Positions 8,341 through 61,442 of a stretch of 64,000 nucleotides of DNA are shown piece by piece. The position numbers and the translations under genes are program-made. The notes beneath the pieces are model-generated. The model was not told where the DNA came from. It made no database searches and saw only the letters and a list, made by a program, of their open reading frames with translations. How positions within the stretch are numbered: position 1 is the first letter of the stretch; each line of letters starts with the position of its first letter. This DNA comes from Cyanidioschyzon merolae (Eukaryota), in assembly GCA_000091205.1 (NCBI GenBank), contig AP006492.2; one strand, given 5' to 3'.

Positions 8341-9217
8341 AGCCAATATCGATCAGGCAATCTGGGATATATGGTCAGTGGAGACGTTCTGTCGAACCAA
8401 AGAAAGCATAGCGCCGGAGGGAATTCCCTAATGGCTCTGGTGTTCGACGCATCGCCTTGGCAGATGCATATGCGCTGAAATCATCCCGCAGGAGGAAATT
8501 CCCTTATACTTCCGCTGGGCCGGTGCCCGCGGGCGGCAAACGTAGCACTTGCGCGTTTCCACTGCATGATTGACACGCAGTTACCGCCGTGGAGAGGCAC
8601 ACGTTAAGCTCGTTTGGAGCAACTGACCAGCTGCAGTCATATATACGTATCTCATCAACGGAGCGTCTTCAGAGACGTGAGCAAAGACGCGCAGGTCGTT
8701 TTGCGCTAAGCTTTAGAGGCTCGTGCGCGGTCTAAGATAGACGTCGACGCGCCGGTGTTGAGGAGAACGAAAACAGCGCCCTTGTGTGTGTAGTTGTCTG
8801 TCGAAAGACGAACAACTTCACTCCAGTAGAGCGTAAACGGGCGCCCCGGAGTCACGGATTTTGAAACTTGAGAAAACACTGGTGCGAAAGCACTCGTCTT
8901 TTCCACGGACTACACGCGTCACGGCGAGAGCGGGGCTCGTTGCTCATCAGTCGCGGCCGGGACGATTCTGAACCACGGAGACGTGAGTGCTACAGCCCAG
9001 TACACTGGATCAAGCGTTGAATGCACGTGCTCCTGGGGATATTGATAACGGCGCTTCTGATCGCCGCTGCGTTCTGGGTCGCATTGTCGATGGTGCGTCT
9101 GGAACGGCGCCTTGCGGAGCACGAGCAGCAGGCAACACAACGTTTATTGGAACCGCGTAAACCTGGTGAGCGCAGCGTGCGCGCGGAAACGAGCACTGCG
9201 CTCTCGTAGCAATACAT

Positions 9218-35100: not shown

Positions 35101-35444
35101 TTCCCCAATCTACAGGATACGTTTCTTCTGTTGAATTCCTGTAAGAAAAACAAACAAAAGCGGAAAAGCGTGCACTGATAAGAGCATTATGCAAGTCACT
35201 ACGCTTCCCCTAACGCTAGGCTCCGAACACGACCGCGACGGTGTATTCGCCTCGGTGGTCTTCGCTCTGACCCCAATCCATGGAAGCGAGCCGAATGCAT
35301 GTACATCGAGACGCAGCGCGTTCACGTGGTCAGCATATCCAGAGAAGCAAACCTGATGTGCGTAGACAGCTGAGGAGGCGTCGCTGCATCGGCTGCTGGG
35401 GCGCAGATTTTGCCCATTGTTGCAGCGCGGACAAGTGTTCCGAA

Positions 35445-36028
35445 TTCTCGAAAATTTACCTTCTAGGTGGAAGGTCTCGCGAGCCGGACGAGCCTGCCGG
35501 GCATACGCCCTGTGCGCCTCTGCAGCGACCGATGCTGTAGGGAGATCTCCGCTGCCCCTCGGCAACGTAATCAATCTGGGGCTCGCAGCGAGTATGCTGC
35601 GTTTCCGCGTCGCGCAGGTCGCAGAGGACTCCGAGCATATCGCTTCGCGCTATCGCAGGCAATACGTCTGTATGCGCATCTTGCAGGCTCCCTGAATGAC
35701 AATGAATCCCGAATCCATATCGTGCAGAACACGCCTCGAGCCGACGCCCTCTGTGGTATAGAAAAGCCGTCCTACGTCCGTGATGCATCCGTACCAAAGG
35801 TAAAGACGCCACTGCGGACTATCAGGGCAGGCATTAGGTGTCCGATAGAACGTAGGAAACGACCAGAATATCCGAGAAAAAGTATAGGTAATGTAACATG
35901 GAAGTAGGGCGTTTGAAGGATACTTCACCTCGCACTAAAAAAACACAAAAAAAAAGTAAGAAAAGAAAAATGCGCGTGATCGGAGAACGCTGGCACAAGT
36001 ACACCTTTTGTCCATGAAAAAAAAATCG
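35445..36028 (+). repeat. R1 repeat, copy d (most complete copy, with an A-rich tail)
   Basis: Head 'ttctcgaaaatttaccttctaggtggaaggtctcgcgagccggacgag'. Core 'cctcgagccgacgccctctgtggtatagaaaagccgtcctacgtccgtgatgcatccgtaccaaagg'. Tail 'gaccagaatatccgagaaaaagtataggtaatgtaac...aaaaaaacacaaaaaaaaagtaagaaaagaaaaatgcgc...gtccatgaaaaaaaaatcgg'. It ends 408 bp upstream of the bZIP ATG. Confidence 0.6.
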
Positions 36029-36435
36029 GTGCTTCCAATTCTGGACACAGGTGGTGCTGGCGCAGCATCGCACAGCGCGCTCCATCAGCATGCCGCGGCA
36101 CACCGCGCGCCGTGGGCGCCACACACGCGAGCGTCTGCTCAGCGCGCTGCGCGGCACAGGAATCCAGATGCATGCGGTCTGTTGTTTTTTTTGATTGTTC
36201 GTTGCTGGTGGTCGCGTCTCGGCTGCAAGTTGCATATTCTTCGTGTCGGCGTGGTTGTGGGGTGCGTTCTTCCACTGGTACTAGAGGACAGGTTGTCAAT
36301 CTTGGTCGCTGACGACGAAAGCGCTCTTTAAGGGTTAGGCGCTGCGCTACTAACGCGGCACGCGTTTGACGGCAAGCTCTCTGCACCAGATAGGACGCTG
36401 CGGCTGCACCGACGCGTTCGCTTCGGCGTTCGTGT

Positions 36436-40825: not shown

Positions 40826-41033
40826 CGTACGTTATAGCAATACGCTCATATTAAGGATCGCGTTTCCCAGTTACGGCAAGATGCGCTTTGCGTCTCATGC
40901 ATGCCAGATATGGAGATGCGCGTCTTGACTGCGCTCTAAAATAAAGAGCGGATAGGAACCTCTAAATACCAACTATATAACAATTTCTGGCCCCGCCTGC
41001 GATAAACGTTGAAAAAGGGAAAAGCTTACGGTA

Positions 41034-41640
41034 TTCTCGAAAGTATACCTTTTAGGTGCAAGGTCCCGCGAGCCGGACGATTCTGCCAGGGTTGTGCCTC
41101 ATGGTCGCCGCAGTGCTTCGTGCTGTAGTAAGATCTGAGCAGTTCGTCCGAAACGCAGTTGATTCTGGTACTCGTAGCGGGTATGCTGCACGTGGGCGTC
41201 GCTCTGGTCGCAGTGGACTCCTCGAATATCGTTTCGCGCTGCCACCGGCACTACGTCCGTCTCTACTGTTTCCACGCTCCCGGAATAATAATGTACTCCA
41301 GACCACGTGTCGGATGCATCATAATTCGATCCGACGCCCTCAGAAGCATGGAAAACCCGCCCTGACTTCGTGCTGCATCTGCCGCAGCGGTCTGACCGCA
41401 GACGCGGGTGCCCCAGACAGGCAAGACCCCCGATAGAACGTAAAAGAACGATCAGTATTTTCGAAAGCAAGTCTGAATGATAGACCTTGGTACACCAGCA
41501 TGACGAACGCTTTGTTTCGATTACCAGTACGCATCCCGCAATCTGGGATCCTTCGTCAATGGAACCGGTTTATCAAGAGTAGAGAAGATCACAAGCAGCG
41601 TGGCCGCCGCCTGCCTGACACAGCGGCTACACGGCCTACA
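41034..41640 (+). repeat. R1 repeat, copy e
   Basis: Head 'ttctcgaaagtataccttttaggtgcaaggtcccgcgagccggacgattctgccaggg'. Core 'ccgacgccctcagaagcatggaaaacccgccctgac'. Its extended 3' part, 'gcatcccgcaatctgggatcc', is shared with copy g ('gcatcccgcagtctaggatcc'). It lies about 210 bp beyond the upstream end of Fanzor-like copy B, separated by a spacer homologous to that of copy A. Confidence 0.55.
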
Positions 41641-41728
41641 GCATTGCTGTTTATCGACGCGCTGCCAAACGGACGCGCAGGGACTCGTCGTACGCGTTAC
41701 ACTCTCTCGGTGGAAGCACACGTTTCCA

Positions 41729-42115
41729 ATGGCAACACGACACATGCTTTGGATGCTTGGACGTTATATTCGAAAGGTGCCTTTAGGGCGTTTGGGTGAC
41801 TCGGCACGGGCGCGAGCGCTGTCAAGCAGCGCGGCGCGCGGGCATGCCTCCTCTTCGCACGTCGCTGGCTCGGAAGGTGCACACGCGAACGCTACGTTTG
41901 AACGCTGGCGACTGATGAGCGCACTCGGAGCACTACCCGTTCTGATCTACGGTGTATGGCTGTTCCGGCAGCCGCACGAGCACGCAGAGCCGCCGCCTCC
42001 GTACCCGTATCTGCGGAGGCGGGTGCGCGATCCAGCTTTTCCCTGGGGCAACCACGAGCTGCTGGGCACGCCCTGGGATCATGAGTCGCCCCACGCTCAC
42101 ACAGACTCTGAGTGA
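41729..42115 (+). CDS. COX6A: Cytochrome c oxidase subunit VIa (COX6A). The start is uncertain, because the ORF opens at 41600 inside the R1e tail.
   Basis: WRLMSALGALPVLIYGVWLF is a single TM helix. It is followed by PYPYLRRRVRDPAFPWGNHELLGTPWDHE, which matches the COX6A signature (hlriRtKpfPWGdGnhtlFhN). Confidence 0.55.
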   Translation: MATRHMLWMLGRYIRKVPLGRLGDSARARALSSSAARGHASSSHVAGSEGAHANATFERWRLMSALGALPVLIYGVWLFRQPHEHAEPPPPYPYLRRRVRDPAFPWGNHELLGTPWDHESPHAHTDSE

Positions 42116-42445
42116 GCATCACGGACTGAGGGGACGCGTTGGTTTTCTAGTCTGGCAATATGCCCGAGCATCGCGTGTAACGGCTTCGATCGCGGATACA
42201 TCCTAATCATCAGGCTTATCGTCACGGAAGCTTTTCATGGAAATCCTATCTCGAACTCAGGTAATGCTGCGGATGTGGACGGGTGCTCGCGTGGTCTCTT
42301 GGGTCTCGTCACCTCTCGCCCGGCATACAGAGCATGCTACGGACGGGCGCGTGCCCATCAGGAACACAACGTGCCTGTGATCTCCCGTTCCCGTACGCGA
42401 TGCTCGTTTCTGTAGCGCGCTGGATGCAGCCTCCACCCTGGTAAC

Positions 42446-46761: not shown

Positions 46762-49700
46762 ATGGGACTGGTCTCTTTTCGGCAGCGGTCGTACCGCTGG
46801 TTTGACCGTTTCTCGGTGATGCTGACGCGGAACCTACGTCTCGTGTACCGCGACACCTTTGCGCTCGTGCTGGTGTTGCTCGTTCCGTTCCTCTTCACGT
46901 TCTTTGTCTTTATCGCGCACTTGTCGTACAATGACGATGCGATTTTCTCTCGAACGACGGGGCCGAAACCGGACCCGCCGGCAATTCCTTTATCCAGCTA
47001 CGTGGAGCCGTGTCGTGCAGTTGTCAGTGATCGTTGCTACAACTTTGCGGTGGTTCCTGGCTCCAACAGCACCGTGGTCGGCTGGGTACAGGAGGTCTCC
47101 AGGCGCCTTGGGCTGTCCACCGCAGTGAACGAGTCGGGAGGTATCATTACATTCGAAACCTCTGATGCGTTGAACGAGTTCATGGTTGCCAACCCGAACG
47201 TGACCCAGGCTGCGTACGTGTTCGAGCCCGAGCAGCTGCGCGCTATCGACGCTGGACGCATTAGTTTCACGGTTCAGTACAACCAGTCTTGCCAACAGAC
47301 GTTTCCTGGTTTTATTTGTAGATACCAGGAGGTGTATTTGGTCCCTGGAATGATTGCGGCGATGAACGACGTCCTGCTGGGGACCAGGCTGAACCTGAGC
47401 AGCGCCTTCATGCCGCATCCGAAACTGCAGTCTGCATTGGACGCTTTTGAAGAATTCGGTCCCTTTATGATGTTTGGATCGCTGGTTATTGTTTTTGTTT
47501 ATTATCTGATGGTCTTGGTGGGTGAGAAAGAGTTGAAACTGCGAGAGGCGTTGAAAATGATCGGTTTGTCGCAGTCGCTGTACTTTCTGAGCGAGGGCGT
47601 TGTTTTCATCCTCGTTTCGACGCTATCAGTATTTCTGCTGTATGCGTTCGGAGCCCTTTTCCAATTTCAGTTCTATCTTAAGAACGCCTTTGGATGCGTG
47701 TTTTTCACGTACTGGATTTTCTCTCTGAGTTTGATATGCTGGGCGTTTTTCTTCCACGTTTTCCTAACCCGATCGAATCAGGTTTCATCGGCTGCGTTCG
47801 TTTTCTTCATCCTGAGTTACCTGTTGGGGTCCTCCGGCGCCTACCTCTACTACGACAAACCCTCGGGAGGTCCATTCGTATCGAGGTCGCTTCTATTTCT
47901 GCGATATGTATTCGCGCTTTTGAGCCCAGTGATGTTTTACAAATGCGTTACCGACCTGAGTATTTACTCGGCTGTGTTCACTGGTCTAAGATGGAGCGAT
48001 CGCGCCAGCTACACGAACTTGTGGCCGCTGACGCAGTGCTGGAGCTGGATGATCTGGACGGGCATCGTCGTTCTGGTGCTCGCCATCTACCTCGACAACG
48101 TGCTTCCGAACGTCTATGGTGTCAGCCTGCCCTGGTGGTACCCGTTCTCTGCTGCCTACTGGCGAGGAGACGCACTGCATCTCCAGCAGCAAAAGCGAAA
48201 AGCATGGCGCCTTTTCCGCCGCCACCGCCGCCAGCGTAGCCAAACAGACACCACCGGCGATGCAGACGACGCGGAAGCGGACGAGGCAGTCAGCGCTGCG
48301 ATCGCAGCGCTCACTGCCCAGCAGCGACATGTGGACGCTGACGACGCGGTCAACGGCAAGGAGGGATACGAGCCGAAAGACGCTGCTGCGGCCGCTGCAC
48401 TGACGAAGTCGTGGGCGGCCTCTGCGCTCGAACACAATGGTGACATGCCCGCTATCGACGCCAGCGATCACGAGGGTATCATTGTGGCTCCGGAAACAGA
48501 CGCCAAGGCAGCGTCAGCGCCGTTGATATTGGCATCATCATCATCATCACCAATGTCGTCGTCGACGGAGTTGGAGTCTGCCAGGGAGCCCGATACGACG
48601 GCGTCGTTCCTGGAACGGCTCCAGTCCATGGTGGAGGTCGCACGCGAGCCTTCACATCGTCACAGCGATGACACGCCAGAAGCGAAGACGGCGGACGCAG
48701 CAGTCGACGCAGACGTGGCAGCGGAGCGCGAGGCCGTTCTCAGCGGTAGAGGGCTCTCGCCGGCGAGCGCTCTGGTGATCCGCCGTCTCACGAAGCATTT
48801 CCGCAAGCAGCTTGCCGTCGACGATCTGTGTTTGTCGGCCGACCATGGAGCACTGACCTGTCTTCTGGGTCCGAATGGAAGCGGGAAGACAACCACCTTT
48901 AATATGCTCACCGGTGTGTTTCGTCCTACCGCTGGAGACGCCTGGGTCTACGGTTACTCGATCACGCAGGAACAGCAGCTGTTACGCCCACTCATGGGGG
49001 TGTGTCCGCAGCACGATATTCAGTGGGCGAATCTCACGGCCGCTGAACATGTGTACTTGTTTGCGACGTTGAAAGGCATCCCCCGATCGAAGCGGCACGA
49101 TGAAGTGAGCCGACGTCTCGAGCAGGTGGATCTGCTGCGTGTTAGCCACAAGTACCCGCGTCAGATGTCCGGTGGCATGCGGCGGCGGCTCTCGGTGGCC
49201 ATGGCCCTGGTCGGAGATCCGCTCATTGTCTACCTCGATGAACCGACGACAGGCATGGACCCGAGCATGCGGAGAGCAGTCTGGAACATGATTGCCGCTG
49301 CGAAACCAGGTCGAACAATCGTGCACACGACGCATTCTATGGAGGAGGCTGACGTGCTGGGTGACCGCATCGCGATCATGTATCGCGGGCGACTGTCGGT
49401 ACTCGGAACACCGCTTCGTCTGAAACACAAGTTTGGTACCGGGTATCGACTGAGCGTCACAGTGCAGGCAACGCAGAGCGAGGCTTTGCACGATCGCCTG
49501 CGGGCGCTCTACCCACGAGTCAAGCGCCTGAGCATCAGCACGCTCGCAGACCAGCGGTATGTGCTGTGTGAATACGAGCTGGTGCCGCTGGAGTCCACGA
49601 ATCTCTTCCGCACCAGTGATGGCGGTGGCACGAACCAGTATCGCTCAGTGCAAGCGCAGCGACGCCTCTTCCAAGAGATGGAGAACAATGCCAGCGGCTG

Positions 49701-49929
49701 GGGAATTGCCGACTTTTCGGTGAGTGGCACCTCCCTCGAGAGCGTGTTTATTCGTGTATTTGAGCTTAACGAGCAGCTTCAGCATACGGCGGAAGCGAGC
49801 GCTAGGGCGGCAGCCGCTGAACCTAAGCGGCGGACCTGGCCTTGGCTGCGTTGGCCTTGGGTCAAATCTCGTCGAGGCGAGCTCCAGTCGCAGCCGATGC
49901 AAACCGCAGAGACGGAGACTCGTCGCTAG
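46762..49929 (+). CDS. ABCA-family half-size ABC transporter with one TMD and one NBD
   Basis: An N-terminal TM helix is followed by a large extracytosolic loop and then a multi-helix TMD. Walker A is LLGPNGSGKTTTFNMLTG, the ABC signature is MSGGMRRRLSVAMAL, Walker B is LIVYLDEPTTGMD and the H-loop is HTTHSMEEAD. A Ser-rich low-complexity insert (SSSSSPMSSS) precedes the NBD. Confidence 0.85.
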   Translation: MGLVSFRQRSYRWFDRFSVMLTRNLRLVYRDTFALVLVLLVPFLFTFFVFIAHLSYNDDAIFSRTTGPKPDPPAIPLSSYVEPCRAVVSDRCYNFAVVPGSNSTVVGWVQEVSRRLGLSTAVNESGGIITFETSDALNEFMVANPNVTQAAYVFEPEQLRAIDAGRISFTVQYNQSCQQTFPGFICRYQEVYLVPGMIAAMNDVLLGTRLNLSSAFMPHPKLQSALDAFEEFGPFMMFGSLVIVFVYYLMVLVGEKELKLREALKMIGLSQSLYFLSEGVVFILVSTLSVFLLYAFGALFQFQFYLKNAFGCVFFTYWIFSLSLICWAFFFHVFLTRSNQVSSAAFVFFILSYLLGSSGAYLYYDKPSGGPFVSRSLLFLRYVFALLSPVMFYKCVTDLSIYSAVFTGLRWSDRASYTNLWPLTQCWSWMIWTGIVVLVLAIYLDNVLPNVYGVSLPWWYPFSAAYWRGDALHLQQQKRKAWRLFRRHRRQRSQTDTTGDADDAEADEAVSAAIAALTAQQRHVDADDAVNGKEGYEPKDAAAAAALTKSWAASALEHNGDMPAIDASDHEGIIVAPETDAKAASAPLILASSSSSPMSSSTELESAREPDTTASFLERLQSMVEVAREPSHRHSDDTPEAKTADAAVDADVAAEREAVLSGRGLSPASALVIRRLTKHFRKQLAVDDLCLSADHGALTCLLGPNGSGKTTTFNMLTGVFRPTAGDAWVYGYSITQEQQLLRPLMGVCPQHDIQWANLTAAEHVYLFATLKGIPRSKRHDEVSRRLEQVDLLRVSHKYPRQMSGGMRRRLSVAMALVGDPLIVYLDEPTTGMDPSMRRAVWNMIAAAKPGRTIVHTTHSMEEADVLGDRIAIMYRGRLSVLGTPLRLKHKFGTGYRLSVTVQATQSEALHDRLRALYPRVKRLSISTLADQRYVLCEYELVPLESTNLFRTSDGGGTNQYRSVQAQRRLFQEMENNASGWGIADFSVSGTSLESVFIRVFELNEQLQHTAEASARAAAAEPKRRTWPWLRWPWVKSRRGELQSQPMQTAETETRR

Positions 49930-50494
49930 GTAGCGTTTCGCGAACAATTCAGCACGCGACTCCCGCATGATATTGAACCAGCAAGATGTCGCGATACCTG
50001 AACAAGGAACGAGTGCGGGCATTTCCTCAAGCGTTCCGCAGATGGCAAAGGTGAAGCACAACTCGAACGCTCCATGCTGCAGTGTCGGTAACCAGATATC
50101 AAAGTGGCGACGCATGCTTCATGAGCTGGACAAGCGATATCGTCTCAGCTTGACTTGGTGCGTTGGCGTCTGTAAAGATCGGCATATACGGCCAGCAGAG
50201 CTACAGTTTGGACATGACTTTGCTGTTCAGCGACGCAGTCGTCGCAAGCGTCGTCTACCAGTCACGTCGGTGGTCGTAGCACATCGCCGATGCCTAGCTG
50301 TTGCCTCCGCGTTTGGCACTAGGATGTTCGGCGCACTGCAGCAGCGAGAACAGCAGCAGTGCGCGCTGAGGTCTGTCTGCCAAATGGGGAACCCTGCGCG
50401 GTCTGTGCAGCGTGCCGGTCGCAGCAGGTACTGGACTAGACGCCGACGGTACGGCGGTACAGGGTATTTTGCCTATGCTCGAATGCAGCAGGCG

Positions 50495-50545
50495 CTCTTC
50501 CGTATTCACACACAAACACACAGACACACAGACAAACATAGATCA
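50495..50545. repeat. Imperfect (CA)n / (ACAG)n microsatellite
   Basis: 'cacacaaacacacagacacacagacaaacatagatcaaca'. Confidence 0.7.
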
Positions 50546-51174
50546 ACAAGGAGTGCCCGATGTCGCTGCTCAAGGAACGTGTCGATGACGCCCTATGCAA
50601 ATACACGCGGGTACATTGGACACGATTTCGCGTGCGCCGCTCTTCAAACATACACTCTTGGGAAAAACCTTTTTCACGCAGGCGCCGCTGCTTGGTAACC
50701 TATCGCGCAGCAGTGATCCAGCGTGTCTCGACCTGACACCTTCATTCATGAACCCGCGCTTCATACCAAGCAGCAGAGCATGGAGCCAGAATCTCTGTTA
50801 TCCGACGCTGTCTGCATAGAGGAGTGCTCGCATGCAACCTGCTGGCGCATGTGGATACGCGTTCTTCACAGCTTTCTGCCCTTGGACTAGTCTACGGGCG
50901 TGCGCGCTCACTTTCCCCGAAAGTCGATAGAGCAATCACTCGACGGCACCAAGCGTCGTCATTCTTCGCGGGAAACGTCGTCTTCGCTTCGATGGTTGTC
51001 GACAACAGTCGCGCATCCAGGGGATACTGGTACCATGCATCAGTCGCATGCAATCAGTGAACACACTGAACGAGATACCAGAAACAAAACGAGAGAAACC
51101 AAATTCTAACTAGCGTCTAGATAAGAATGTCGTTCAAACTTCACGGTAAGCATTGACAGGGAGACGTTTTCCGC

Positions 51175-52030
51175 GTATTCGAGTGTTACGCTTCTGGGGG
51201 CAGGAGGCCCCGCGAACCGGACGAGTCTACCGGGCTTGCGCTCCGTGTGCCTCTGCATTGCCGGGCTCAGGAGCAAGACGCAAGGAACTCGTTCGCCACG
51301 CAGTTCATTCTGGGACTAGGAGCGGTTGGGCTGTCTCTGGGCGTCGACCTGGTCACGGAAGTCTCCAAGCATATCGCTCCACGCTGCCGCAAGCTGAAGA
51401 GCTGGCTGCGCAACTCGCACGCTCCCAGCAGGACGAAGAGGCCGGATTCCTTGTTCAATGAACCACGCCTCGAGCCGACACCCCCAGTGGTGTGGCAAAG
51501 CCGTTCTGACTGGGTGCTCCATTCGCACCGGCGGTACAGACGTTACGGTGGGTGCTCACTGGATGCGCTCAGTCCACGACAGATCGTATCGAGCGACCAG
51601 TCCATCCGAGAGCAAGGATCGGAGATGGAACTTGAAGGTACACTGAAGAATAATGGACGCTTTTCTTAATCTCAATATGCATCCCGCAGTCTAGGATCCA
51701 CGCTCCAAGTAAACGTTCTGGATGAACAAACGCAATCCACAAGGGTCGTCTGCGCCGCTGTGCCGCTCCGGGAACGCGGCAGCGATCCATGCAATCGCCC
51801 AGCTCGCTTGCAACGCATGGCGATCGTCCCGGAGGCGCGGCCGGAGCGGCAGCTCAAGGCAACGAAGGGCGAGGCGAGGCAGCGCGGTGCGGCAGGCGCC
51901 ACCGGCGGCGATCGCATCGATCACATGCACCGCGCACTGAAAAACCCCCCAAAAAGAAAGGCAAAATGCGCATCATCGGAGAACGCTGGCCTGAGTGAAC
52001 GTTTTGTCCATGAAAAAGAAAATCGATCGC
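51175..52030 (+). repeat. R1 repeat, copy g (with a duplicated or extended 3' region)
   Basis: Head 'gtattcgagtgttacgcttctgggggcaggaggccccgcgaaccggacgagtctaccgggc'. Core 'cctcgagccgacacccccagtggtgtggcaaagccgttctgac'. Tail 'gcgcactgaaaaaccccccaaaaagaaaggcaaaatgcgcatcatcggagaacgctggcctgagtgaacgttttgtccatgaaaaagaaaatcgatcgc'. The tail overlaps the first codons of the SAS-6 ORF. Confidence 0.55.
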
Positions 52031-53818
52031 ATGCGCGCCAGCTGCGCGCACACGCACGTCGCTGCCGGCAGTTCAAAATCATTCGCCGCTGCGCAACGCA
52101 CAACGCGATCCTGGACAGTTGCCGCATTCCCAGGGCGCACGCGCGTGGCGCCCTTCGTGCATCCGACGGTTGCGGAGGTACTGGTGCTGGTACCCGCGAG
52201 CGTGGACATTGCTTTCCACCAAGTGCTGGGTTGGCGACAGGCCCCTTGGATGAATGAACCTCCAACGTTTGGATCAGCGTCAGCGCTGACGGATCCGCGA
52301 AGTCAAAACGGGGTACCTGAGCGTGCTGACGCTTTTCCTGGGCGCTACGAACAGCGTGTCCCGTTTACGGTGCGATGCGTGCGTACCGGTAGCGAGCGCA
52401 CGCAGGTTCCGCTGCGTGTTCAGCTGCGTGCAGACGGCGCTGATCAGGAGGCTGGGGATGATGATGCATCTGCACCTCCTTGGGAGTCCTCGGAGCGGTA
52501 TGCTCGTGGAATGGGTGTGTCTGCGGCCTCAGCGAGCGAACTGTCGACTGGCCGACGCGTCGCGCACGTCGGACCGCTGGCGCTGCGAACTTTGCGACTG
52601 CGTATCACTGACCCCGCAGACCCGATCTTTCTATACGAGTGGCGCATGACAGAGGAAGAGTATCCACGGTTCAAGGCAGACCAGTGTCTCTTTGTTGATT
52701 TTGGCCGCTTTCCGCGAACACTGGTGGACCTCTTCGAACAGTGTCGTCGGGAGGGAAGCGGTTTTCACGCCTTGCTCCGCCTGGAAGACGGGGCAGCACG
52801 ACTTTCGGTCTTCGAAACGACAGCGTTCCGAAACTTGCCGCACTTGGCATTGGAATTGCAGGCAGCGAGCGGGGAACGGCTACAGCGCTACCTCGTCTCG
52901 AGTCTGCACAGCGCGGAACGGAGAGCTACCCGTTTGGAGGAGTCCATGGAGCAGATGCGCCGATCACTAGACGAGCGCACGGCTCGAGTCCAGGAGCTCA
53001 TGGGACAGGTGGCGCAACTCCAACAAGAGCGCTCTCAGGCAGCGGAGGCAGCACGGGCCCAGCATCAGGCCGAGCTCGCCGAGGTCCGCGAGCAAGCCCT
53101 CAAAGAGGCGCTCCAGAGACAGGAGCAGTGGCAGCAGGAGCGTCGTGCACTCGAAGAACGATATCGGGAGGAGATAGCCACGCTCTCGGAGCGAATACGA
53201 CAGAACGAAACGGACATGCAGCGGCTCACCGACGAACGATACGCCCGTGAGCAACAGATTCGGCAGCTCGAGCTACGCCTGAGCGCCCAGCAGAGCGAGC
53301 ACGAAACCATGCGGTCGGAGCTGGACAGAGTGCGCCAGGATCTTCGGGAGCGCGCCCGTGCGGTGCACGAGCTTGAGCGACAACTGGACGCAGTGAACGC
53401 CCAGATCCAGGGACTGGAGCGGGCCCTGCAAGACAAAGACGCCTGGATAGAACGCATGCGCCAGATGCTAGAGCTTGCGAACGCTCAAAAGAGCACACTG
53501 GAAGAGACAATTTTAGCCCATCGGGAGGCTCGGGCACGCCTCGAACGACAGCTCGAGGCAGCAGCTGCCGAAATAGAGCGCGGCAATAGTCTCCTGGAGC
53601 GATTACAGTCAGCGCTCCGCGAGGCCAAGACGAAGGCGCGACTCAAGGCTGCGGTTGCGGAGCAGCAGGAGGCGCTGCTGCGAGAGCGCCAGCGCGAGAT
53701 CGACGCTCTGAGAGAGCAGCTCACCGCGCTGACGACGCACACACGACCATGGCGTGCCCCTGGGGCTCCCCCGGAGCCGACCTCGGCATCAGCAAGCTCA
53801 GAAATTTCCGCCCCCTGA
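51995..53818 (+). CDS. SAS6: SAS-6 centriole cartwheel protein. The true start is probably downstream, at M13 (52031) or M86 (52250).
   Basis: The N-terminal head domain ITDPADPIFLYEWRMTEEEYPRFKADQCLFVDFGRFPRTLVDLFEQC matches the SAS-6 PISA block; human SAS-6 reads [47 protein letters not shown]. About 330 residues of heptad-rich coiled coil follow. The first 12 codons of the ORF are R1g tail sequence. Confidence 0.8.
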   Translation: MNVLSMKKKIDRMRASCAHTHVAAGSSKSFAAAQRTTRSWTVAAFPGRTRVAPFVHPTVAEVLVLVPASVDIAFHQVLGWRQAPWMNEPPTFGSASALTDPRSQNGVPERADAFPGRYEQRVPFTVRCVRTGSERTQVPLRVQLRADGADQEAGDDDASAPPWESSERYARGMGVSAASASELSTGRRVAHVGPLALRTLRLRITDPADPIFLYEWRMTEEEYPRFKADQCLFVDFGRFPRTLVDLFEQCRREGSGFHALLRLEDGAARLSVFETTAFRNLPHLALELQAASGERLQRYLVSSLHSAERRATRLEESMEQMRRSLDERTARVQELMGQVAQLQQERSQAAEAARAQHQAELAEVREQALKEALQRQEQWQQERRALEERYREEIATLSERIRQNETDMQRLTDERYAREQQIRQLELRLSAQQSEHETMRSELDRVRQDLRERARAVHELERQLDAVNAQIQGLERALQDKDAWIERMRQMLELANAQKSTLEETILAHREARARLERQLEAAAAEIERGNSLLERLQSALREAKTKARLKAAVAEQQEALLRERQREIDALREQLTALTTHTRPWRAPGAPPEPTSASASSEISAP

Positions 53819-53957
53819 TCGTCACCGACCAGACTCGCTGGAGCGAGTCTGCCCAGACAGCTGACCGCCAAGTCGCCAACACAGCAACGGCGTCTGCGCG
53901 GTCCCGCTCCAGACCAGGACATATGAGGTACTCGTTGCGGCCTTGTCTTGGCGACAC

Positions 53958-55364
53958 TCATTGAAAAGGCGGCTCCAGTGGTGTGGATCTCGGGCCGGTC
54001 TCTGCTTTTGGACGTCGACGCTTCCCCGTTGCCGGCCACTGATGATGTTTGTAATGGCGGTAGCTTCCTTGTTGTTGTTGTTGTTGTTGTTGTTGTTGAA
54101 GCGCCTCGGCGGCATGCCTGCCGTCGCTCGATGTGTGGCGAGGCTTGCGAATCAGCGGGCCGGATGATGGCGACGGCTCTTTGCGCATTGCCTCCGCTTG
54201 CTGATGCTTTCCAACGGCGTGCGGTGGCGGAGCTCGGCTTGCTCCTGCCAGCTGACGCGATGTCGTCTCCTGCGCTGTATCAGCGACAATCTCGACAGCG
54301 CATTCGGCAAGCGTTGCTCCGGATGGCGCCCCGAGCGCCCGGGCTGACGCTGGGAGTCGCTGCCAGGCGGCGGCATCGGCCGCGCGACGCTGCGCTCTGC
54401 AGAGCCGCGCAAAATAGTCCGCGCGGAAACGATCAAGCGCAGACGCCAAGGTTGGTGCGTCGATATGACACTCACGTAGCCATTGCGCAATATCCTCGCC
54501 GGCACGCAAACGACACAGGCACATGGCCACACAAAGCGCAGCAGCGGCTAACTCCTCCTTCGGATACAGACACGCGCAGACTGTGCGGTGAGCTTCGTTT
54601 AGAAACGAGCACGCAACCTGCAGCATTGTTCGCACGCTCGTCTCAGACCAGGGCACAGTATCGCCGTTTCGGGCGCGAATGAGCTTTTCCAACAAAGCCC
54701 ACTGATGAAACATTGTTCGGTGGACGCTTTCGCCCACATCTAAATCCCAGTTCAGGGTTTGTAGCACATCTCGCTCCGCTTGGGCAATACGCTCACGGCA
54801 GCGGACGTAGAGGTCTTGATGGAGCTGCTCGTCGAGCAGCAGGCACCCGCCTGTGCGGAGGGCGTAGCTCTGGCGAACGAGATCTCGCATGCGAACCACA
54901 TTCTCAGTTGCTTTACAGGCAATCGAAACACAAGCGGTTGCGATATCGAGCTCATCAAACGTCGCATCAAAGCGCTCGAGCAGGAAGAAGCGATGAAAGA
55001 GCAGGCGCGCTGCGATCAGTGTCGTTATCGGTAGCCGCAGACTCGCACGAAGCCGCTCACCTACACCACTACGCTCTGCGCGGTGCGATCCAGCAGCCGT
55101 TTCAGCGTCGAGCGTCGTTGTCGACGGCGACGACGACGTTGTCACCGGTTCACCTATTCTCTGACACAGACGGTCCATGAACGCCATCACAAGGCGACGT
55201 CGTCGCTCGTCTTCGCGAAGGGCACCAGCATCAGGCGCCGTCGTCTCGGACGCACGCGTTGCCTTAGTTGCCGTCCCGCGAGAGACCGCCTCGCGTGCCG
55301 TAAACACCCACAGCGAGTCCAGCTGTCGCAGCGGCGGACGCTGACGCTGACCTGCAGCCGCCAT
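53958..55364 (-). CDS. Transcriptional-type cyclin (cyclin L/K/T/C family fold) with a C-terminal poly-Gln tract
   Basis: LRLPITTLIAARLLFHRFFLLE ... LDIATACVSIACKATE matches cyclin-box helices 1-3 of the C/H/K/L/T group. A second repeat follows. The QQQQQQQQQ tract is encoded by (TTG)n on the plus strand at 54069-54098. The plus-strand ORF 53948..54682 is antisense. Confidence 0.7.
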   Translation of the reverse strand: MAAAGQRQRPPLRQLDSLWVFTAREAVSRGTATKATRASETTAPDAGALREDERRRRLVMAFMDRLCQRIGEPVTTSSSPSTTTLDAETAAGSHRAERSGVGERLRASLRLPITTLIAARLLFHRFFLLERFDATFDELDIATACVSIACKATENVVRMRDLVRQSYALRTGGCLLLDEQLHQDLYVRCRERIAQAERDVLQTLNWDLDVGESVHRTMFHQWALLEKLIRARNGDTVPWSETSVRTMLQVACSFLNEAHRTVCACLYPKEELAAAALCVAMCLCRLRAGEDIAQWLRECHIDAPTLASALDRFRADYFARLCRAQRRAADAAAWQRLPASARALGAPSGATLAECAVEIVADTAQETTSRQLAGASRAPPPHAVGKHQQAEAMRKEPSPSSGPLIRKPRHTSSDGRHAAEALQQQQQQQQQQGSYRHYKHHQWPATGKRRRPKAETGPRSTPLEPPFQ

Positions 55365-55794
55365 GCCAGCTGCAGTGTCCGCGGATGCCGCAACCTCAAC
55401 CGCTCGGTGCCGGAGTTCCGAAACTGACCCCTCTCCGAGTCTTGTTTACGAGTCGTTCCAGGGCTCCCGCCAGTCGGTCGCTGCTGCGGAGCCTCGTCAA
55501 CGAGCGCTGGGTGCGCGGCCCCAGCGACTACGCACGAGACACCGCGAAACGCTGCACGCAACGAGTCAACCAGCTTCACTGCAGCCGCAAGCGCCTTGAG
55601 CCCTTGCTCACTGGTGATAAACCGGGCTTGACAAACGGAACACTCGTTGACGGGTACGCAACGCACACGCAGCAGCAGAGGCACACGCCTACCGCCGTTC
55701 CATCGCAGCGACACGGCGGCGTGCCGGGCGAGGCGGCGCCTTCGATCGACTGCCGCGCGATGCGTAGGCGCGCCGCCTCGCCCGGCACGCCGCT

Positions 55795-55985
55795 GAGAGT
55801 GTGTGTGCTTGTGTATCTGCGTCTGCGTCTGTGTGCTTGTGTATCTGTGTGTCTGTGTGCTTGTGTGTCTGTGTCTGTGTCTGTGAGTGTGTGTGCTTGT
55901 GTGTCTGTGTCTGCGTCTGTGTGCGTCTGCGTCTGTGTGTCTGTGTGCTTGTGTGTCTGTGTCTGTGTCTGTGTGTCTGTGTCGG
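55795..55985. repeat. Imperfect (TGTGTC)n / (TGTGCG)n microsatellite of about 190 bp
   Basis: It lies between the GapA 3' end and the cyclin 5' end, both on the minus strand. ORFs 55187..56083, 55385..56017, 55576..56034 and 55801..56064 are repeat artefacts. Confidence 0.85.
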
Positions 55986-56539
55986 GATACAGGAAGCGTC
56001 CAGCGAGTCGCTGCTGACTGCACGTGTTCCGCAAAGCCCAGAGCGTGCCAGTCTCGGACGATAACTGGACCGTATTGCGTCATCGGGATCGTGCTTTCGC
56101 CGCCTTACCGACGACGAGCTTCGCTTGCAATGAAGTACGCACCATCGAAGCATCCTTGAGGCAGCATGCGCTGGATGCGCGCTACCATCAGGGTAGCATC
56201 CATCGCTGCCCTCTCTTTCACCGTCTCACTCTACATCAGAAGACGTTCGACGCGCCTCAGACCCGCCTTGATATCGGGATCGGGTGCTCGGTGCGTCACG
56301 CGCTGCTCAAGGTGCCACGGGGCATCTGGCAGGTGCTTGCGATACCACCAGGGCTGGTGGTGTGAAACCGGAGCCCGCCCGGAGCAAATGCACCCGCGTC
56401 GGATGATCGGATGCAGATGCGTGGTGTCCGCTGGAGAGTATTTTCGGTTCTTCCGGTCGCTTTACCTGGGATGAACATTCGGATACGCGTCTGTGCTGCT
56501 CGTTCGATCGAGTCCGTTTACCACTTGCTTGCTCCGTGT

Positions 56540-57781
56540 CTAGAAATGCTGCGCTATGTAGTTGGCCAAGTCCACAACCCGTTGACTGTAGCCATACTCG
56601 TTGTCGTACCAGGCTACCACTTTGACGAGCGTATCACCCATCACCGTCGTCAGCGCTGCATCCACAATGCTTGAGTTGACGTTCATCCGATAATCCGATG
56701 AGACGAGCGGCTCATCGCTCACCGCCAGGATACCCTTCATTGGCCCTTCCGCTGCTCGTACGAAAGCTGCATTCACTTCCTCCTTGAACGTTGGTTTCTT
56801 CACCGTGCAGACAAAGTCGACGATAGAAACGTTCGGGGTCGGCACTCGCAGGGCAATGCCGGTGAGCTTGCCCTTCACTGGTGGATACACCAGCGCAACC
56901 GCCTGCGCGGCACCCGTCGAGGTCGGCACGATGTTCAACGCGGCCGCACGGGCGCGACGCAGGTCGCGATGCGATGCATCCAGCAGACGCTGGTCCCCGG
57001 TATACGAATGCGTCGTGGTCATCATGCCGGAAACGATGCCGAATTCCTCGTCGAGCACCTTCACGAACGGTGCCATGCCGTTGGTGGTGCACGACGCGTT
57101 GCTCACCACATGGTCGGTGGCGTGGTTATACTGGGTGTTGTTCAGACCCATGACAAAGGTCGGGACGCCTTCGCCTTTCGCTGGCGCTGTGATGACCACC
57201 TTTTTGGCACCCGCTTCGATGTGCTTGCCTGCCCCGTCCCTTGAGATAAAGACACCCGTTGCCTCGATGACGATGTCGACGTTGAGGTCCCTCCAAGGCA
57301 GCTGGGTCGGATCGCGGTTGCTGACAACGGTAACCGGCTTCCCGTCAATGAGCATGGTACTCTCCCCGCTAACCTTCACGTCAAACGGTGCAATTCCCAG
57401 AATAGAGTCGTACTTCAGCAGATGAGCGGCAGTTTTGATGCCAGCCGTATCGTTGATCCCCACCAGCTCCAGGTTCGCGTTCGGGGTCGCTTGCAGGCAG
57501 CGCACAAAGTTGCGTCCGATGCGACCGAACCCGGAAACCGCTACCCGCACCTTCATCACAAGATTCGAGTGCGCAGCACGTTGCCGGCTCCGCGTCAGCG
57601 GCACACCTAAGCTTCGCGTACGTGCAGTGAAGGCACCAGGCTGGTCACCAGCCTGCAGCCGGGGTCCGACGGCCTCGCGGCTCGTAGCGCGCACCGCCGT
57701 GCCGCGAAAACCACCAACTGGAGCTACGAAAGCAGCACACGTAAACACCATTCTCCAAAAAGAGAGCGTTTTTCTTGTCAA
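56540..57781 (-). CDS. GAPA: GapA/B-type plastid glyceraldehyde-3-phosphate dehydrogenase (Calvin-cycle type) with an N-terminal targeting extension of about 75 aa
   Basis: It is near-collinear with plant and algal GapA: [87 protein letters not shown] and [24 protein letters not shown]. The N-terminal extension [36 protein letters not shown]... is hydrophobic, then hydroxylated and basic. Confidence 0.9.
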
Positions 57782-57939
57782 TTCACTGGTTACAACGACC
57801 GCAGAAGACCTAAAGGCGCCGACGTCGTCCTACAATGAGACAGCGAACGCGATAACACGTACGAGTTTGCGAATGCAGCAGCCGCGAGCGCAGCGCCCAG
57901 TCTCGCCGCGTCGCCAGAAGATCAGCTGGTGGACGAAGC

Positions 57940-58068
57940 CGCTGCTGCTGCGGCTCCTGCGGCTGCTGCGGCTGCTGCTGCGGCTGCCGCGGCTGCGGTC
58001 TATCGCGTCGACGTCGATGTCGCCGCCGCCGCCGCCGCCGCCGCCGCGAGGCATCGACGACGCCCACG
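57940..58068. repeat. GC-rich trinucleotide repeats, (GCT/GCG)n then (GCC)n
   Basis: 'gctgctgctgcggctcctgcggctgctgcggctgctgctgcggctgccgcggctgcgg...gccgccgccgccgccgccgccgccgcg'. They lie in the divergent intergenic region between GapA and the DnaJ-HEAT gene. Confidence 0.8.
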
Positions 58069-58084
58069 AACGCATCGAGGCGCA

Positions 58085-58155
58085 GCGCGAATCGTATCGG
58101 GTATAAAATGTATAACTAGGTTTTATATGGAACATGTTTGTATACAATTATATTA
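58085..58155. promoter_or_regulatory. AT-rich, TATA-like island in the divergent GapA / DnaJ-HEAT intergenic region; a candidate bidirectional promoter
   Basis: 'gtataaaatgtataactaggttttatatggaacatgtttgtatacaattatattaaaatgaatatatgg' is embedded in DNA of more than 65% GC. This call rests on position and composition only. Confidence 0.3.
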
Positions 58156-58223
58156 AAATGAATATATGGACATAGATCGGGCGAGCTGGCACTTTCCGCA
58201 TCCCAGGTCTGCTCAGTACCTGC

Positions 58224-59858
58224 GTGGCATTGACGACAGGTCTGGATGGCTGGGTTCGGTCGGTGCGAGACCATCGCGGGTTACACGTTGTCGCTCCGTC
58301 AGCTTCCATGTTTCTATCACTAGCAGACATTCGAAGGTGTTCTCTGCGCGACCGTCGGTGGTCGGGGCGGCGGCGCGCGCAACCCAGGTCAGTGTGCTGG
58401 CAGTGTGCGCAGCGCAACGCGAGCACGCGTCGCCAAGGCGTTGCACGCGAGGACCTGTACCGAGTTCTGGGGGCAACGCGGGACTCGAGCCCGGCGGAGA
58501 TCCGGCGCGCGTTCCTTGAACAGAGCCAGCGGTGGCATCCTGATCGCAACCCGGGTGACGAGCGCGCGAGCGAGCGTTTTGAGGCTGTCAAAACCGCTTA
58601 CCAGGTGCTCCGCGATGCAACCCTCCGAGCAGCGTACGACGAAGCCGGATTTGCCGGCCTGGACGCTGTTATCTCGGTTGAGTCTCGACACGAGCGAATG
58701 AAAGACGCTTTAAAGGAGGTGCAGCAGCTCGAACGTGATAACGCGAGCACTGAAGAACTCGCGTTCTGGGGACTCGACGGCAGCAACCTGGCCCTACTCG
58801 AAGGCGCCGAGCCCGTAGTACCCTCGGACGGGGGCGCATCCAGCGCTGTGGACCAACCGACCGACGCTCGGCCGCGTTCTGTTGCCGAAGCAATAGCGAA
58901 TTTGAATCATCCCGATGAGGGCTATCGCTACTATGCCGTCTGGTGGTTGTCGCGGTTTCGTGTTCGAGAGGCAGCCGATGCCCTCGTGGCGGTGTTACGT
59001 CATTCCACGGACCGAACGGCGCTTGGCGGGTACCCGCTCCGACGACGCGCTGCCTTGGCGCTCGGCAACCTTGGTGCATTAGAGGCGTTAACATTCCTTC
59101 AGGAGGCGCTCGGCAATGACGAGGACTGGCATCTGCGCCACAGAGCCGCTGAGGCTATCGCCAAAATTCTCATGCAGCAACCGAGCTACATGCCGAACTC
59201 CCAGTTGACAGAAGCGCTCCTGTCTCGACTGGAAACGTTTCAGAGCGAGGCGCACAACGAAACCGAATCGGTGACGCTGCCACCAGGCTTCGACCTCTCG
59301 ACGCTGGACGAGGCGAAGCGAGCGCGTCTGCTCGAGATCTTTGCTAAGCGACGCGCCGATGAGGCGCGAGCTCGTCGCAGCACCCAGACACCAACACTGG
59401 GTGTCGATCTCCAATCAGCGATGATGCAGGAACCGTACGAATGGCTCCTGAAAGCACTTGGATACGTAGCTGGACGCATGCGCTCGGATCCGGCCGTCTG
59501 GGCGCGTTACGAAGACCGTTTCGTCTCAGCGATGCGACCCCTGACGAAACATCCAGTGCCGCTCGTACAGTACGCAGCGCACAAGGCCATGTACCAAGCG
59601 ACCGGCAAAGTGGAACATTTGCATGCACTTCATGGTGCTCTCGAATTCGGTGCCGAACATCACTTTTCCCAGCGCGTCCTCGTACGAGATCTCGGAGAGC
59701 TCGGGCAGCTTGAGTCGGCATCGGCCATTGCGAACTGTGCGATGGTCGAAAATAGCTTCAAAGTTTTCGCCATTCGCCAGATCATTCAGCGTTGCAACTT
59801 GGAGCTCACGCACTCGGCCCTCGACCCGCTCTTTCACCTCTTGGACGACCTGCTCTAA
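58224..59858 (+). CDS. J-domain protein fused to E/Z-type (PBS-lyase / CpcE / NblB-like) HEAT repeats
   Basis: The J domain reads DLYRVLGATRDSSPAEIRRAFLEQSQRWHPDRNPGDERASERFEAVKTAYQVLRD and includes HPD. The HEAT repeats are NHPDEGYRYYAVWWLSRFRVREAADALVAVL, RRRAALALGNLGALEALTFLQEAL and NDEDWHLRHRAAEAIAKI. All fit the PBS-lyase repeat consensus D..VR..AA.ALG.IG...A...L...L.D. Confidence 0.75.
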   Translation: MALTTGLDGWVRSVRDHRGLHVVAPSASMFLSLADIRRCSLRDRRWSGRRRAQPRSVCWQCAQRNASTRRQGVAREDLYRVLGATRDSSPAEIRRAFLEQSQRWHPDRNPGDERASERFEAVKTAYQVLRDATLRAAYDEAGFAGLDAVISVESRHERMKDALKEVQQLERDNASTEELAFWGLDGSNLALLEGAEPVVPSDGGASSAVDQPTDARPRSVAEAIANLNHPDEGYRYYAVWWLSRFRVREAADALVAVLRHSTDRTALGGYPLRRRAALALGNLGALEALTFLQEALGNDEDWHLRHRAAEAIAKILMQQPSYMPNSQLTEALLSRLETFQSEAHNETESVTLPPGFDLSTLDEAKRARLLEIFAKRRADEARARRSTQTPTLGVDLQSAMMQEPYEWLLKALGYVAGRMRSDPAVWARYEDRFVSAMRPLTKHPVPLVQYAAHKAMYQATGKVEHLHALHGALEFGAEHHFSQRVLVRDLGELGQLESASAIANCAMVENSFKVFAIRQIIQRCNLELTHSALDPLFHLLDDLL

Positions 59859-60248
59859 TGCCTAGGAGCATCTATGATGCACGTGTCTAACGACGTTCAC
59901 GAGCGGGAGCAGTTTTATTTTGACACGATTTCGATGGACGCGGAGGCACAGATGAGTAGACCGCTCACACGTAGTCTGCCTCCGTTCGTACAGGCGACTT
60001 TTGTGTGTGTGCGTGTCTGTCGCTGATGCACCTCTTGGCGGCAGCAGCAGGATTCGTTCATTACTTCGTTCGTCGGGGATGGCATCGGCAACATCTGCCA
60101 ACGCACGCACCATTCCACCACCCGCACTTCCATCCGATTTAAATGATCCGAAACCACAAATTCCCGTCCCGATCGGCAAGGGAGTATCGAAGGAGTAGCG
60201 TCGACGCGTGAGCACGTCCCAGCAGGCACGGCGGGCTATGCGCTCACT

Positions 60249-61442
60249 TCAGGTATCGGCAGCGTGGACGCAGCGCGCCGTGCTGGAGGCTGGGGATGAT
60301 GTTGCCTCATTGAACTGAGCAAGTGCGCGCTGCGCTCGAGCTCGTACCACCACATCTGCATCCTGGTTTGCAATGTGAGCCAAAATATTGGTTATTTCTG
60401 GCTTTTCGATAAACTTGCGATGCAGTAAATGCGATAGCGACCAAACCAACGCATAACGTATTGTCCAGTCGGGGTCACCCACGAGCGACGACAGCGATGC
60501 GACTGCATCCTCACAACGCGCTCTCCCGTTTGCCGACTCTTCGTATTTCAGCTGAGCGAGGCAGCGCACCGCAGCACGCCGTACGTTAGGAATGGGTCCA
60601 CGAAGCGCACACTGCTTTGCAACCGTGAAGACCGCGTCTGCGTCGCCTATTGCACCCAGTGCTCGCAGCGCGTACGCGTTAACGGCATAGTTCAGAGCGC
60701 CAACGCCCTGTAGCAGTACCGGGACGGCGCCCTTTCCATAAAGTCGCACGAGAAGATCCAGCGCTATTCGCGCTGCAACCGGATTATTGTAGCCGAGCGA
60801 GTCCACAAGAAAAGGAATGAGCGTATCCGGCGGTCTGGTGCCTCTGTCATTGGCAGACTGCTGCTGTTGCCAAAGCCAGTCGGCTATGCGTTCCATAGCG
60901 TCGATGAATGCAGCTGGTGAGTCAGGACCGCGAACAATCATCTGGACCAAGGGTTTGATCTGATCCGGAAGCTGTTGCTCATCAATGTCGTACGCAAGGC
61001 CCCCATTGACACCAGACATTCGTGGTTCGGTGCGTGCTGGGCCTTGGAGCCGCTGCGCAGGGCGATAGCGCCGGCTTGCAACTGCCCATGTGCGAGCGGT
61101 TGGAGCGCTCAGACACCTCGGTGCACGGGCAGCCGCTGCTGAGCGTCTCCATCGCTGTACACAGTGCGCTGTCCAGGTCGTGAACATGAGGCGTCTGTGA
61201 CACTCTGGAAACCCAGAGTACGTGCTCGTGCTCCGGCACGAACGAGTGTCGACACAGCACCGTTTGTGCGTCGCCTCAGCGGCAACGAACTTGCTGCGCT
61301 CGCGTGCTTTGAGAAGAGAAACTGGATTAATATGTACATTTATGGACTCGGTACATCGAGGGAATTTTGTTTGATCGCTGGTAAGTGCTGCTGTAGTGCG
61401 GCGGCAGCAGCGCCTTCTGCCCCGCCTTCGAATCGGCGACAT
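60249..61442 (-). CDS. E/Z-type HEAT-repeat (PBS-lyase-like) protein, convergent with the DnaJ-HEAT gene
   Basis: NPVAARIALDLLVRLYGKGAVPVLLQGV, NAYALRALGAIGDADAVFTV, PNVRRAAVRCLAQL and GDPDWTIRYALVWSLSHL are repeated E/Z HEAT units. Confidence 0.6.
   Translation of the reverse strand: MSPIRRRGRRRCCRRTTAALTSDQTKFPRCTESINVHINPVSLLKARERSKFVAAEATHKRCCVDTRSCRSTSTYSGFPECHRRLMFTTWTAHCVQRWRRSAAAARAPRCLSAPTARTWAVASRRYRPAQRLQGPARTEPRMSGVNGGLAYDIDEQQLPDQIKPLVQMIVRGPDSPAAFIDAMERIADWLWQQQQSANDRGTRPPDTLIPFLVDSLGYNNPVAARIALDLLVRLYGKGAVPVLLQGVGALNYAVNAYALRALGAIGDADAVFTVAKQCALRGPIPNVRRAAVRCLAQLKYEESANGRARCEDAVASLSSLVGDPDWTIRYALVWSLSHLLHRKFIEKPEITNILAHIANQDADVVVRARAQRALAQFNEATSSPASSTARCVHAADT

Follow-up and report, generated by a model that had tools for sequence, protein, structure and literature searches.

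Two convergent genes in a 64,000-nucleotide stretch of Cyanidioschyzon merolae DNA (contig AP006492.2 of assembly GCA_000091205.1; the whole stretch is referred to here as the window) are almost certainly the nuclear cpcE and cpcF genes of C. merolae 10D, with predicted products that group with CpcE and CpcF of Nostoc and not with NblB, CpeY, importins or generic HEAT-repeat proteins. At its N terminus the CpcE subunit carries a J domain whose HPD motif is intact, and the locus as a whole is probably best explained as a nuclear cpcE/cpcF pair in which this J domain would couple the lyase to the action of a plastid Hsp70. The locus itself is known, since the reference genome of C. merolae carries annotations for both genes, and their products, XP_005534793.1 and XP_005534794.1, are listed as C. 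merolae CpcE and CpcF in Table S2 of a 2026 FEBS Journal paper (PMC13193486). The J-domain fusion makes red-algal CpcE a modestly interesting, uncharacterised version of an enzyme already known.

Identity of the convergent gene pair

The two maximal open reading frames (ORFs) lie at 58224..59858 (+, 544 amino acids (aa)) and 60249..61442 (-, 397 aa), and the true coding sequences of both genes are shorter. The cpcE coding sequence spans 58308..59858 on the + strand (516 aa plus stop, beginning MFLSL), within a maximal ORF that opens at a GTG at 58224, and its product from the first ATG at 58308 is identical at all 516 positions to BAM80186.1/XP_005534793.1, the product of a nuclear gene, annotated as "phycocyanobilin lyase alpha subunit". 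The cpcF coding sequence spans 60249..61187 on the - strand (312 aa plus stop, beginning MFTTW), and its product from the ATG at 61187 is exactly BAM80187.1/XP_005534794.1, the "phycocyanobilin lyase beta subunit". The 397-aa ORF reaching up to 61442 was rejected as the cpcF product: an exact look-up returned no match for it because the actual coding sequence is the 312-aa version. The converging stop codons are separated by 390 bp (59859..60248), a spacer read directly from the sequence which presumably holds the 3' untranslated regions of both genes, and the tail-to-tail placement of two HEAT-repeat genes that had been described from sequence alone is thus borne out by the ORFs and their stop codons.

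Among the NCBIfam profiles, the + strand protein is matched best by CpcE (NF058502; E 1e-42, 146.4 bits against an equivalog cut-off of 330), followed by CpeY (E 1.1e-07) and NblB (E 8.8e-05), and the - strand protein is matched best by CpcF (NF058515; E 1.2e-32, 113.1 bits against a cut-off of 220, over profile positions 31-199 of 200), followed by NblB (E 7e-06). That neither score reaches its equivalog cut-off counts against the assignment, which therefore depends on the rank of the best match and on fold instead of a curated threshold. The NCBIfam CpcE model was made for the annotation of bacterial and archaeal genomes, not of eukaryotic proteins, and its match here is split in two by a red-algal insertion described below. 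The NblB equivalog profile has a cut-off of 300 bits and is matched by neither protein: the scores are 22.1 and 25.7 bits, each from one short stretch.

The structural comparisons lead to the same pair of subunits. By sequence, the closest solved structure to CpcE is 5n3u_A, the Nostoc CpcE chain (E 9.6e-32, in two stretches), and the closest to CpcF is 5n3u_B (E 1.1e-20). When AlphaFold2 (AF2) models of the two proteins were compared with known folds by Foldseek, the first match of the CpcE model (mean predicted local distance difference test score (pLDDT) 82.8) was again 5n3u_A (E 3.1e-13, TMt 0.84), with a designed alphaRep protein second at E 2.4e-05, and the first match of the CpcF model (mean pLDDT 84.1) was 5n3u_B (E 5.5e-08, TMt 0.90, root-mean-square deviation 1.8 A, 34% identity). 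The nearest cyanobacterial relatives of CpcE are named phycocyanobilin lyase alpha subunit, and with a CpcF orthologue encoded 390 bp away on the opposite strand the partner subunit is present in the genome. The sequence-only reading had placed both genes among the HEAT-repeat genes of the E/Z type, and profiles, structures and folds now narrow this to bilin-lyase HEAT proteins of the E/F type, the CpcE and CpcF partners specifically.

It could be argued that the repeats are generic HEAT, armadillo (ARM) or importin-like repeats and that the resemblance to CpcE/F exists at the level of the repeat only. Pfam HEAT_EZ stays under its cut-off of 27 bits in both proteins (20.9 and 15 bits), the strongest Pfam repeat match is HEAT_2 (E 2e-17 in the + strand product, which also matches HEAT_PBS at E 1.4e-10, and E 2.5e-21 in CpcF), and designed alphaRep and armadillo proteins do occur among the fold matches. 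This idea nevertheless has next to no probability in our judgement, as the CpcE and CpcF profiles and the 5n3u chains lead by wide margins and cover both halves of the proteins, the 5n3u matches standing 3 to 8 orders of magnitude above generic repeat proteins in Foldseek, where importins appear only at E about 1e-3 and TM about 0.2 (0.2-0.3 in the lists). Motifs that are not part of the repeats are also held in common with the cyanobacterial proteins: YYAxWW, GGYPLRRxAAxALG and ENSFK in CpcE, and LGYNNP, NY...A..R and VRRAA in CpcF. Generic or importin-like repeats, which had been set beforehand as grounds for abandoning the bilin-lyase reading, are therefore not what we found, with CpcE/CpcF profiles and folds ahead by many orders of magnitude.

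At the levels of profile, sequence and fold, then, the closest known system is the cyanobacterial CpcE/CpcF enzyme, the phycocyanobilin:Cys-alpha84-phycocyanin lyase of Nostoc PCC 7120 (5n3u), with which the C. merolae pair shares a two-subunit design and neighbouring partner genes. The red-algal genes differ from it in being nuclear and in encoding products with presequences, and each subunit has gained further parts: CpcE the J domain, the conserved linker and an insert of about 80 residues, and CpcF an N-terminal extension starting MSGVNGG.

Architecture of the CpcE and CpcF proteins

CpcE (516-aa numbering) begins with a presequence of residues 1-44 (58308..58439, +) that AF2 predicts to be disordered (pLDDT <50) and that contains 12 Arg or Lys against 2 Asp or Glu, with Phe at position 2. 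In the alignment, the presequences of red-algal CpcE homologues are variable and have Phe near the N terminus, and from this composition we presume that the CpcE presequence is a plastid transit peptide.

The J domain follows directly, at residues 49-111 (about 45-114 in the AF2 model; 58452..58640, +). It matches Pfam PF00226 over all of the profile (E 8e-19, positions 1-63 of 63; residues 77-139 of the 544-aa ORF), it matches the J-domain structures of E. coli DnaJ at E about 1e-15 when its sequence is compared with solved structures, and it is modelled with a pLDDT of 96-98. The HPD motif (residues 77-79; 58536..58544, +) lies between helices II and III, within the sequence WHPDRN, and the DnaJ domain with an intact HPD motif that was first noticed in the ORF translation holds up in full. 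The other parts of canonical DnaJ proteins, the Gly/Phe-rich (G/F) region, the zinc finger and the DnaJ C-terminal domain, were not detected in CpcE with Pfam and NCBIfam (PF00684 and PF01556 gave no match), and full-length DnaJ profiles match only over residues 74-165. Since it has an HPD J domain and none of these other parts, CpcE is a class-C (type III) J-domain protein, as it is in each red alga sampled.

Between the J domain and the lyase body lies a long helix and flexible linker (residues 112-185; 58641..58862, +), recognised from the AF2 model and the alignments. In the model the helix occupies residues 115-143 and a disordered linker with pLDDT <50 occupies residues 148-180. The alignments show that the linker carries a red-algal motif, GEQLDFLSDTGxL, and a second motif, DACPRSVEEAI (about residues 185-195), runs from the end of the linker into the first residues of the N-terminal half of CpcE. 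This N-terminal half is a HEAT solenoid at residues 186-290 (58863..59177, +) whose counterparts are 5n3u_A residues 9-114 and, in the CpcE profile, positions 4-102. The C-terminal half, likewise a HEAT solenoid, occupies residues 373-516 (59424..59855, +), of which residues 406-495 align to 5n3u_A 164-250, and its ENSFK and DSLL motifs are common to cyanobacteria.

The two halves are separated by a red-alga-specific insertion (residues 291-372; 59178..59423, +), defined by alignment with cyanobacterial CpcE and not found in the four cyanobacterial CpcE sequences aligned. Its core is a highly conserved, basic motif, LFDLxxLxPxVRxKLExxFxxRRxNExRxRRTTMTPQLGV, and AF2 confidently predicts a helix at residues 335-355.

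CpcF is organised more simply, with a 56-residue basic presequence, a conserved stretch, MSGVNGGLAYDIDEQQLP, and then the solenoid. The presequence (residues 1-56; 61020..61187, -) has low pLDDT in the AF2 model and contains 12 Arg or Lys against 1 Asp or Glu with Phe at position 2; the presequences of its homologues are variable and contain Phe. As for CpcE, this composition leads us to presume a transit peptide and import into the plastid. The N-terminal extension behind it (residues 57 to about 90; 60918..61019, -), delimited by the alignment of CpcF homologues, has the motif MSGVNGG(I/L)xY(D/E)(I/V)D..LP, which is conserved in red algae and was not found in the sampled cyanobacterial CpcF sequences of the alignment. 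The methionine that opens this extension, Met57 (61017..61019, -), is kept in nearly all red-algal CpcF proteins, right after the variable presequence, and several gene callers begin CpcF there, yielding 256-aa versions. Met57 could be a relic, part of a processing site, or an alternative start giving a CpcF that lacks the presequence.

Distribution and conservation of the J-domain fusion

In an alignment of 25 red-algal CpcE sequences, H77, P78 and D79 are invariant (25/25). Mean pairwise identity over this set is 0.17 for the presequence, 0.43 for the J domain, 0.60 for the N-terminal half of CpcE, 0.61 for the core motif of the insertion and 0.55 for the C-terminal half.

With the HEAT part of CpcE alone as the query, the red-algal proteins recovered were about 470-575 aa long and almost all had PF00226; the named sources are Cyanidium, Galdieria partita, G. 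sulphuraria, Gracilariopsis chorda, Agarophyton chilense and Porphyridium purpureum, and the full-length search recovered a further J-CpcE from Gracilaria domingensis. PF00226 was not found in any of the 90 CpcE-like matches listed that are about 260-320 aa long, many of which come from named cyanobacteria. When a red-algal profile was searched exhaustively against 1.84 billion representative proteins, the full J plus CpcE architecture was present in about nine clusters, the named members of which are all red algae, Rhodosorus marinus being one. Four other high scorers that might have been different fusions of a J domain to repeats (P0216, P0227, P0232 and P0246) were rejected, as they are multi-J-domain proteins, ordinary DnaJ or J-ankyrin proteins unrelated to CpcE. 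Among the predicted proteins sampled, the fusion thus spans Cyanidiophyceae, Porphyridiophyceae, Stylonematophyceae and Florideophyceae and is present in every red alga and in no cyanobacterium. One Ala/Gly-rich J-CpcE sequence is possibly from the Bangiales, a guess from its composition.

Several red-algal CpcE gene models seem at first to lack the J domain (P0003, P0010, P0011, P0107, P0108, P0012 and P0215). Five of these were inspected and all start within the J domain, in helices III-IV, and because their starts fall inside the domain they are N-terminally truncated gene calls and not genuinely J-less proteins. The gene of Cyanidiococcus yangmingshanensis is a related case: a J domain with the HPD motif is present (VWRR01000018.1, about 7900..8000) and is split over two reading frames, the first reading ..RRWHPDRNPGD.. 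and the second continuing ..IKAAYEVLRD... The frame split is probably an indel in the assembly, and it is because of this frameshift in the J domain that the 433-aa "hypothetical protein" F1559_003018 is truncated.

Databases label the fusion automatically, for example as "J domain-containing protein" (UniRef) or as "curved DNA-binding protein CbpA" (Joint Genome Institute (JGI) calls). We found no published description of a J-CpcE fusion in the full-text literature searched, a body of text in which most subscription journals lie outside coverage.

Possible coupling of bilin attachment to plastid Hsp70

An HPD-bearing J domain stimulates ATP hydrolysis by Hsp70, and the intact J domain of CpcE therefore makes coupling to an Hsp70 reasonable to infer. 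One parallel for an arrangement of this kind is HscB, which with HscA and IscU forms a class-C J-domain system dedicated to one client in Fe-S cluster transfer. Like CpcE, HscB fuses an HPD J domain to a domain that binds a specific client or cofactor carrier and has no G/F or zinc-finger region, and by analogy Hsp70 would in both cases be directed to a step of cofactor transfer. The two proteins have no sequence relationship beyond the J domain, and the match of the HscB profile to CpcE is marginal (E 0.046).

The lyase side of such a coupling has precedents as well. The E/F lyases have been described as "chaperone-like, but ATP-independent", with direct evidence for a chaperone-like function of the E subunit PecE (PMC2327270), and the E/Z-type lyase subunit CpeZ, also built of HEAT repeats, is reported to hold its apoprotein in a chaperone-like manner (PMC10254012). 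PecE and CpeZ are thus, like CpcE, HEAT-repeat lyase subunits, with chaperone-like activity; they lack a J domain and act independently of ATP, whereas the E subunit of C. merolae is fused to what would be an Hsp70-recruiting module. A candidate partner is available in the plastid, since red-algal plastids possess their own DnaK, which is plastid-encoded in the Bangiales (PMC10255470).

If these parts work together, both subunits would be imported into the plastid through their basic, Phe-containing presequences, and the pair of CpcE and CpcF solenoids would hold phycocyanobilin and apo-CpcA as the cyanobacterial pair does. The J domain, tethered by its flexible linker, would then trigger ATP hydrolysis on a stromal Hsp70 (DnaK), and the Hsp70 would clamp apo- or holo-CpcA at the lyase, either keeping a new apo-alpha subunit competent to receive its bilin or pulling a finished subunit off the enzyme. 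In this way the chaperone-like but ATP-independent E subunit of cyanobacteria would become coupled to ATP. We lean slightly toward the view that the J domain does couple chromophorylation of alpha-phycocyanin to plastid Hsp70, judging from domain content and conservation. The broader proposal, in which J domain, linker, CpcE insertion and CpcF extension form a pan-rhodophyte module that makes Cys-84 chromophorylation or subunit release depend on ATP hydrolysis by plastid DnaK, could well be correct but falls just short of being favoured.

Several considerations weigh against this coupling. That an Hsp70 is stimulated, which Hsp70 it would be and which step would be affected are all things that we infer, and plastid targeting is read from the composition of the presequences only. 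In addition, catalysis has no intrinsic need of the J domain, given that the enzyme of cyanobacteria functions in the absence of Hsp70.

This last point is also the starting position for explanations in which the J domain serves some purpose other than the lyase reaction: it might engage stromal Hsp70 at or after import, it might act in quality control of the lyase, or it might be a neutral relic. Its position would suit such a role, right behind the presequence, with a disordered linker between it and the lyase body. However, a relic is hard to reconcile with an HPD motif unchanged in all 25 sequences and with a J region conserved over four red-algal classes, imported proteins generally need no J domain of their own, and conservation of the J domain extends to the linker motifs and the CpcE insertion, suggesting an integrated module. 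We regard this group of explanations as rather improbable.

Another possibility is that J-CpcE/CpcF works mainly in reverse, in the manner of NblB, with Hsp70 assisting the disassembly of phycocyanin or the detachment of bilin during phycobilisome turnover or nitrogen starvation. Hsp70 and J proteins often drive disassembly, and NblB, a phycobilisome degradation protein and CpcE homologue, is likewise an E/Z-type HEAT protein that acts on phycobiliproteins, with weak profile matches to both C. merolae proteins. CpcE/F itself catalyses both the attachment of bilin to Cys-alpha84 and its release, and it has been proposed to take part in degradation (PMC2327270). Against this, the NblB matches reach only 22-26 bits, far under the 146 bits of CpcE and the 113 bits of CpcF, and the published table of C. 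merolae lyases, which is not a complete survey of the genome, contains a single CpcE/CpcF pair (PMC13193486). Because that table has this pair only, alpha-84 attachment would be left without an enzyme if the pair did not carry it out, and a mainly degradative function seems unlikely to us.

If we return to Hsp70 coupling at the lyase, an HPD-invariant J domain on all sampled red-algal CpcE proteins predicts that Hsp70 is recruited at the chromophore-attachment step of eukaryotic phycobilisome biogenesis. Were this true, red-algal CpcE would be the first bilin lyase physically linked to an ATP-driven chaperone, and the fusion would be a molecular synapomorphy of Rhodophyta. For the heterologous production of red-algal phycocyanin, co-expression of DnaK or removal of the J domain might alter yields. 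The prediction of Hsp70 recruitment is directly testable, because C. merolae permits homologous recombination.

Gene arrangement and genomic context

The convergent layout of cpcE and cpcF in C. merolae differs from that of cyanobacteria, where the two genes are usually co-directional within the cpc operon (PMC2327270). The tail-to-tail arrangement is retained in Cyanidium caldarium, where the spacer is 48 bp and the flanking genes differ, and in Cyanidiococcus yangmingshanensis, where the GapA neighbour is retained too. The order ABC transporter, SAS-6, cyclin, GapA, cpcE, cpcF (46762..61187) is collinear in C. merolae and Cyanidiococcus, and in Cyanidium only the cpcE/cpcF pair of this order stays linked. 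No cpcF was called within 8 kb either side of cpcE in Galdieria sulphuraria or Porphyridium purpureum, and linkage of the two genes appears to be confined to Cyanidioschyzon, Cyanidiococcus and Cyanidium.

The gene next to cpcE, divergent from it, encodes a plastid glyceraldehyde-3-phosphate dehydrogenase (GAPDH) of the GapA type (56540..57751, -, in an ORF extending to 57781). Its product from the ATG at 57751 is exactly BAM80185.1 and matches NCBIfam PRK07403 at E 8.4e-156, and BAM80185.1, BAM80186.1 and BAM80187.1 are all encoded on one 839,707-bp record. The start codons of GapA and cpcE are 556 bp apart (57752..58307). This spacer contains arrays of GCTGCG and CGC triplet repeats followed by a short, very AT-rich patch (57941..58047; 58100..58170), and it may be a shared promoter region.

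From the GapA gene the sequence-only reading had concluded that this is a green-type genome, of a lineage not expected to have phycobilisomes, in which a HEAT pair would act on some tetrapyrrole or plastid complex other than the phycobilisome. The neighbouring GAPDH is indeed of the GapA type, but the rest of this argument is refuted: all three genes match C. merolae 10D proteins exactly, the flanking genes are syntenic with those of Cyanidiococcus, and C. merolae is a phycocyanin-containing red alga with phycobilisomes whose phycocyanin lyases have been tabulated (PMC13193486). GapA is present in this red alga and is thereby shown not to mark the green lineage, and the surprise that had been attached to a bilin-lyase pair in this genome disappears because the lineage had been wrongly assigned.

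The remaining ORFs of the window are typical eukaryotic nuclear genes, among them a RabGAP-TBC protein, a bZIP protein, an Obg GTPase, an ABC transporter, SAS-6 and a cyclin. Transfer RNA (tRNA) and Rfam scans of the whole window gave zero matches. The genome is otherwise fairly compact, with three intervals, 2700..9200, 32100..36400 and 38200..42400, that contain no ORF of at least 220 aa on either strand. Between the cyclin-like gene and GapA, at 55793..55983, lies an imperfect GT-rich tandem array with units such as TGTGTC and GTCTGTGT and a higher-order period of 88 bp (2.2 copies), which gives rise to spurious long ORFs on both strands.

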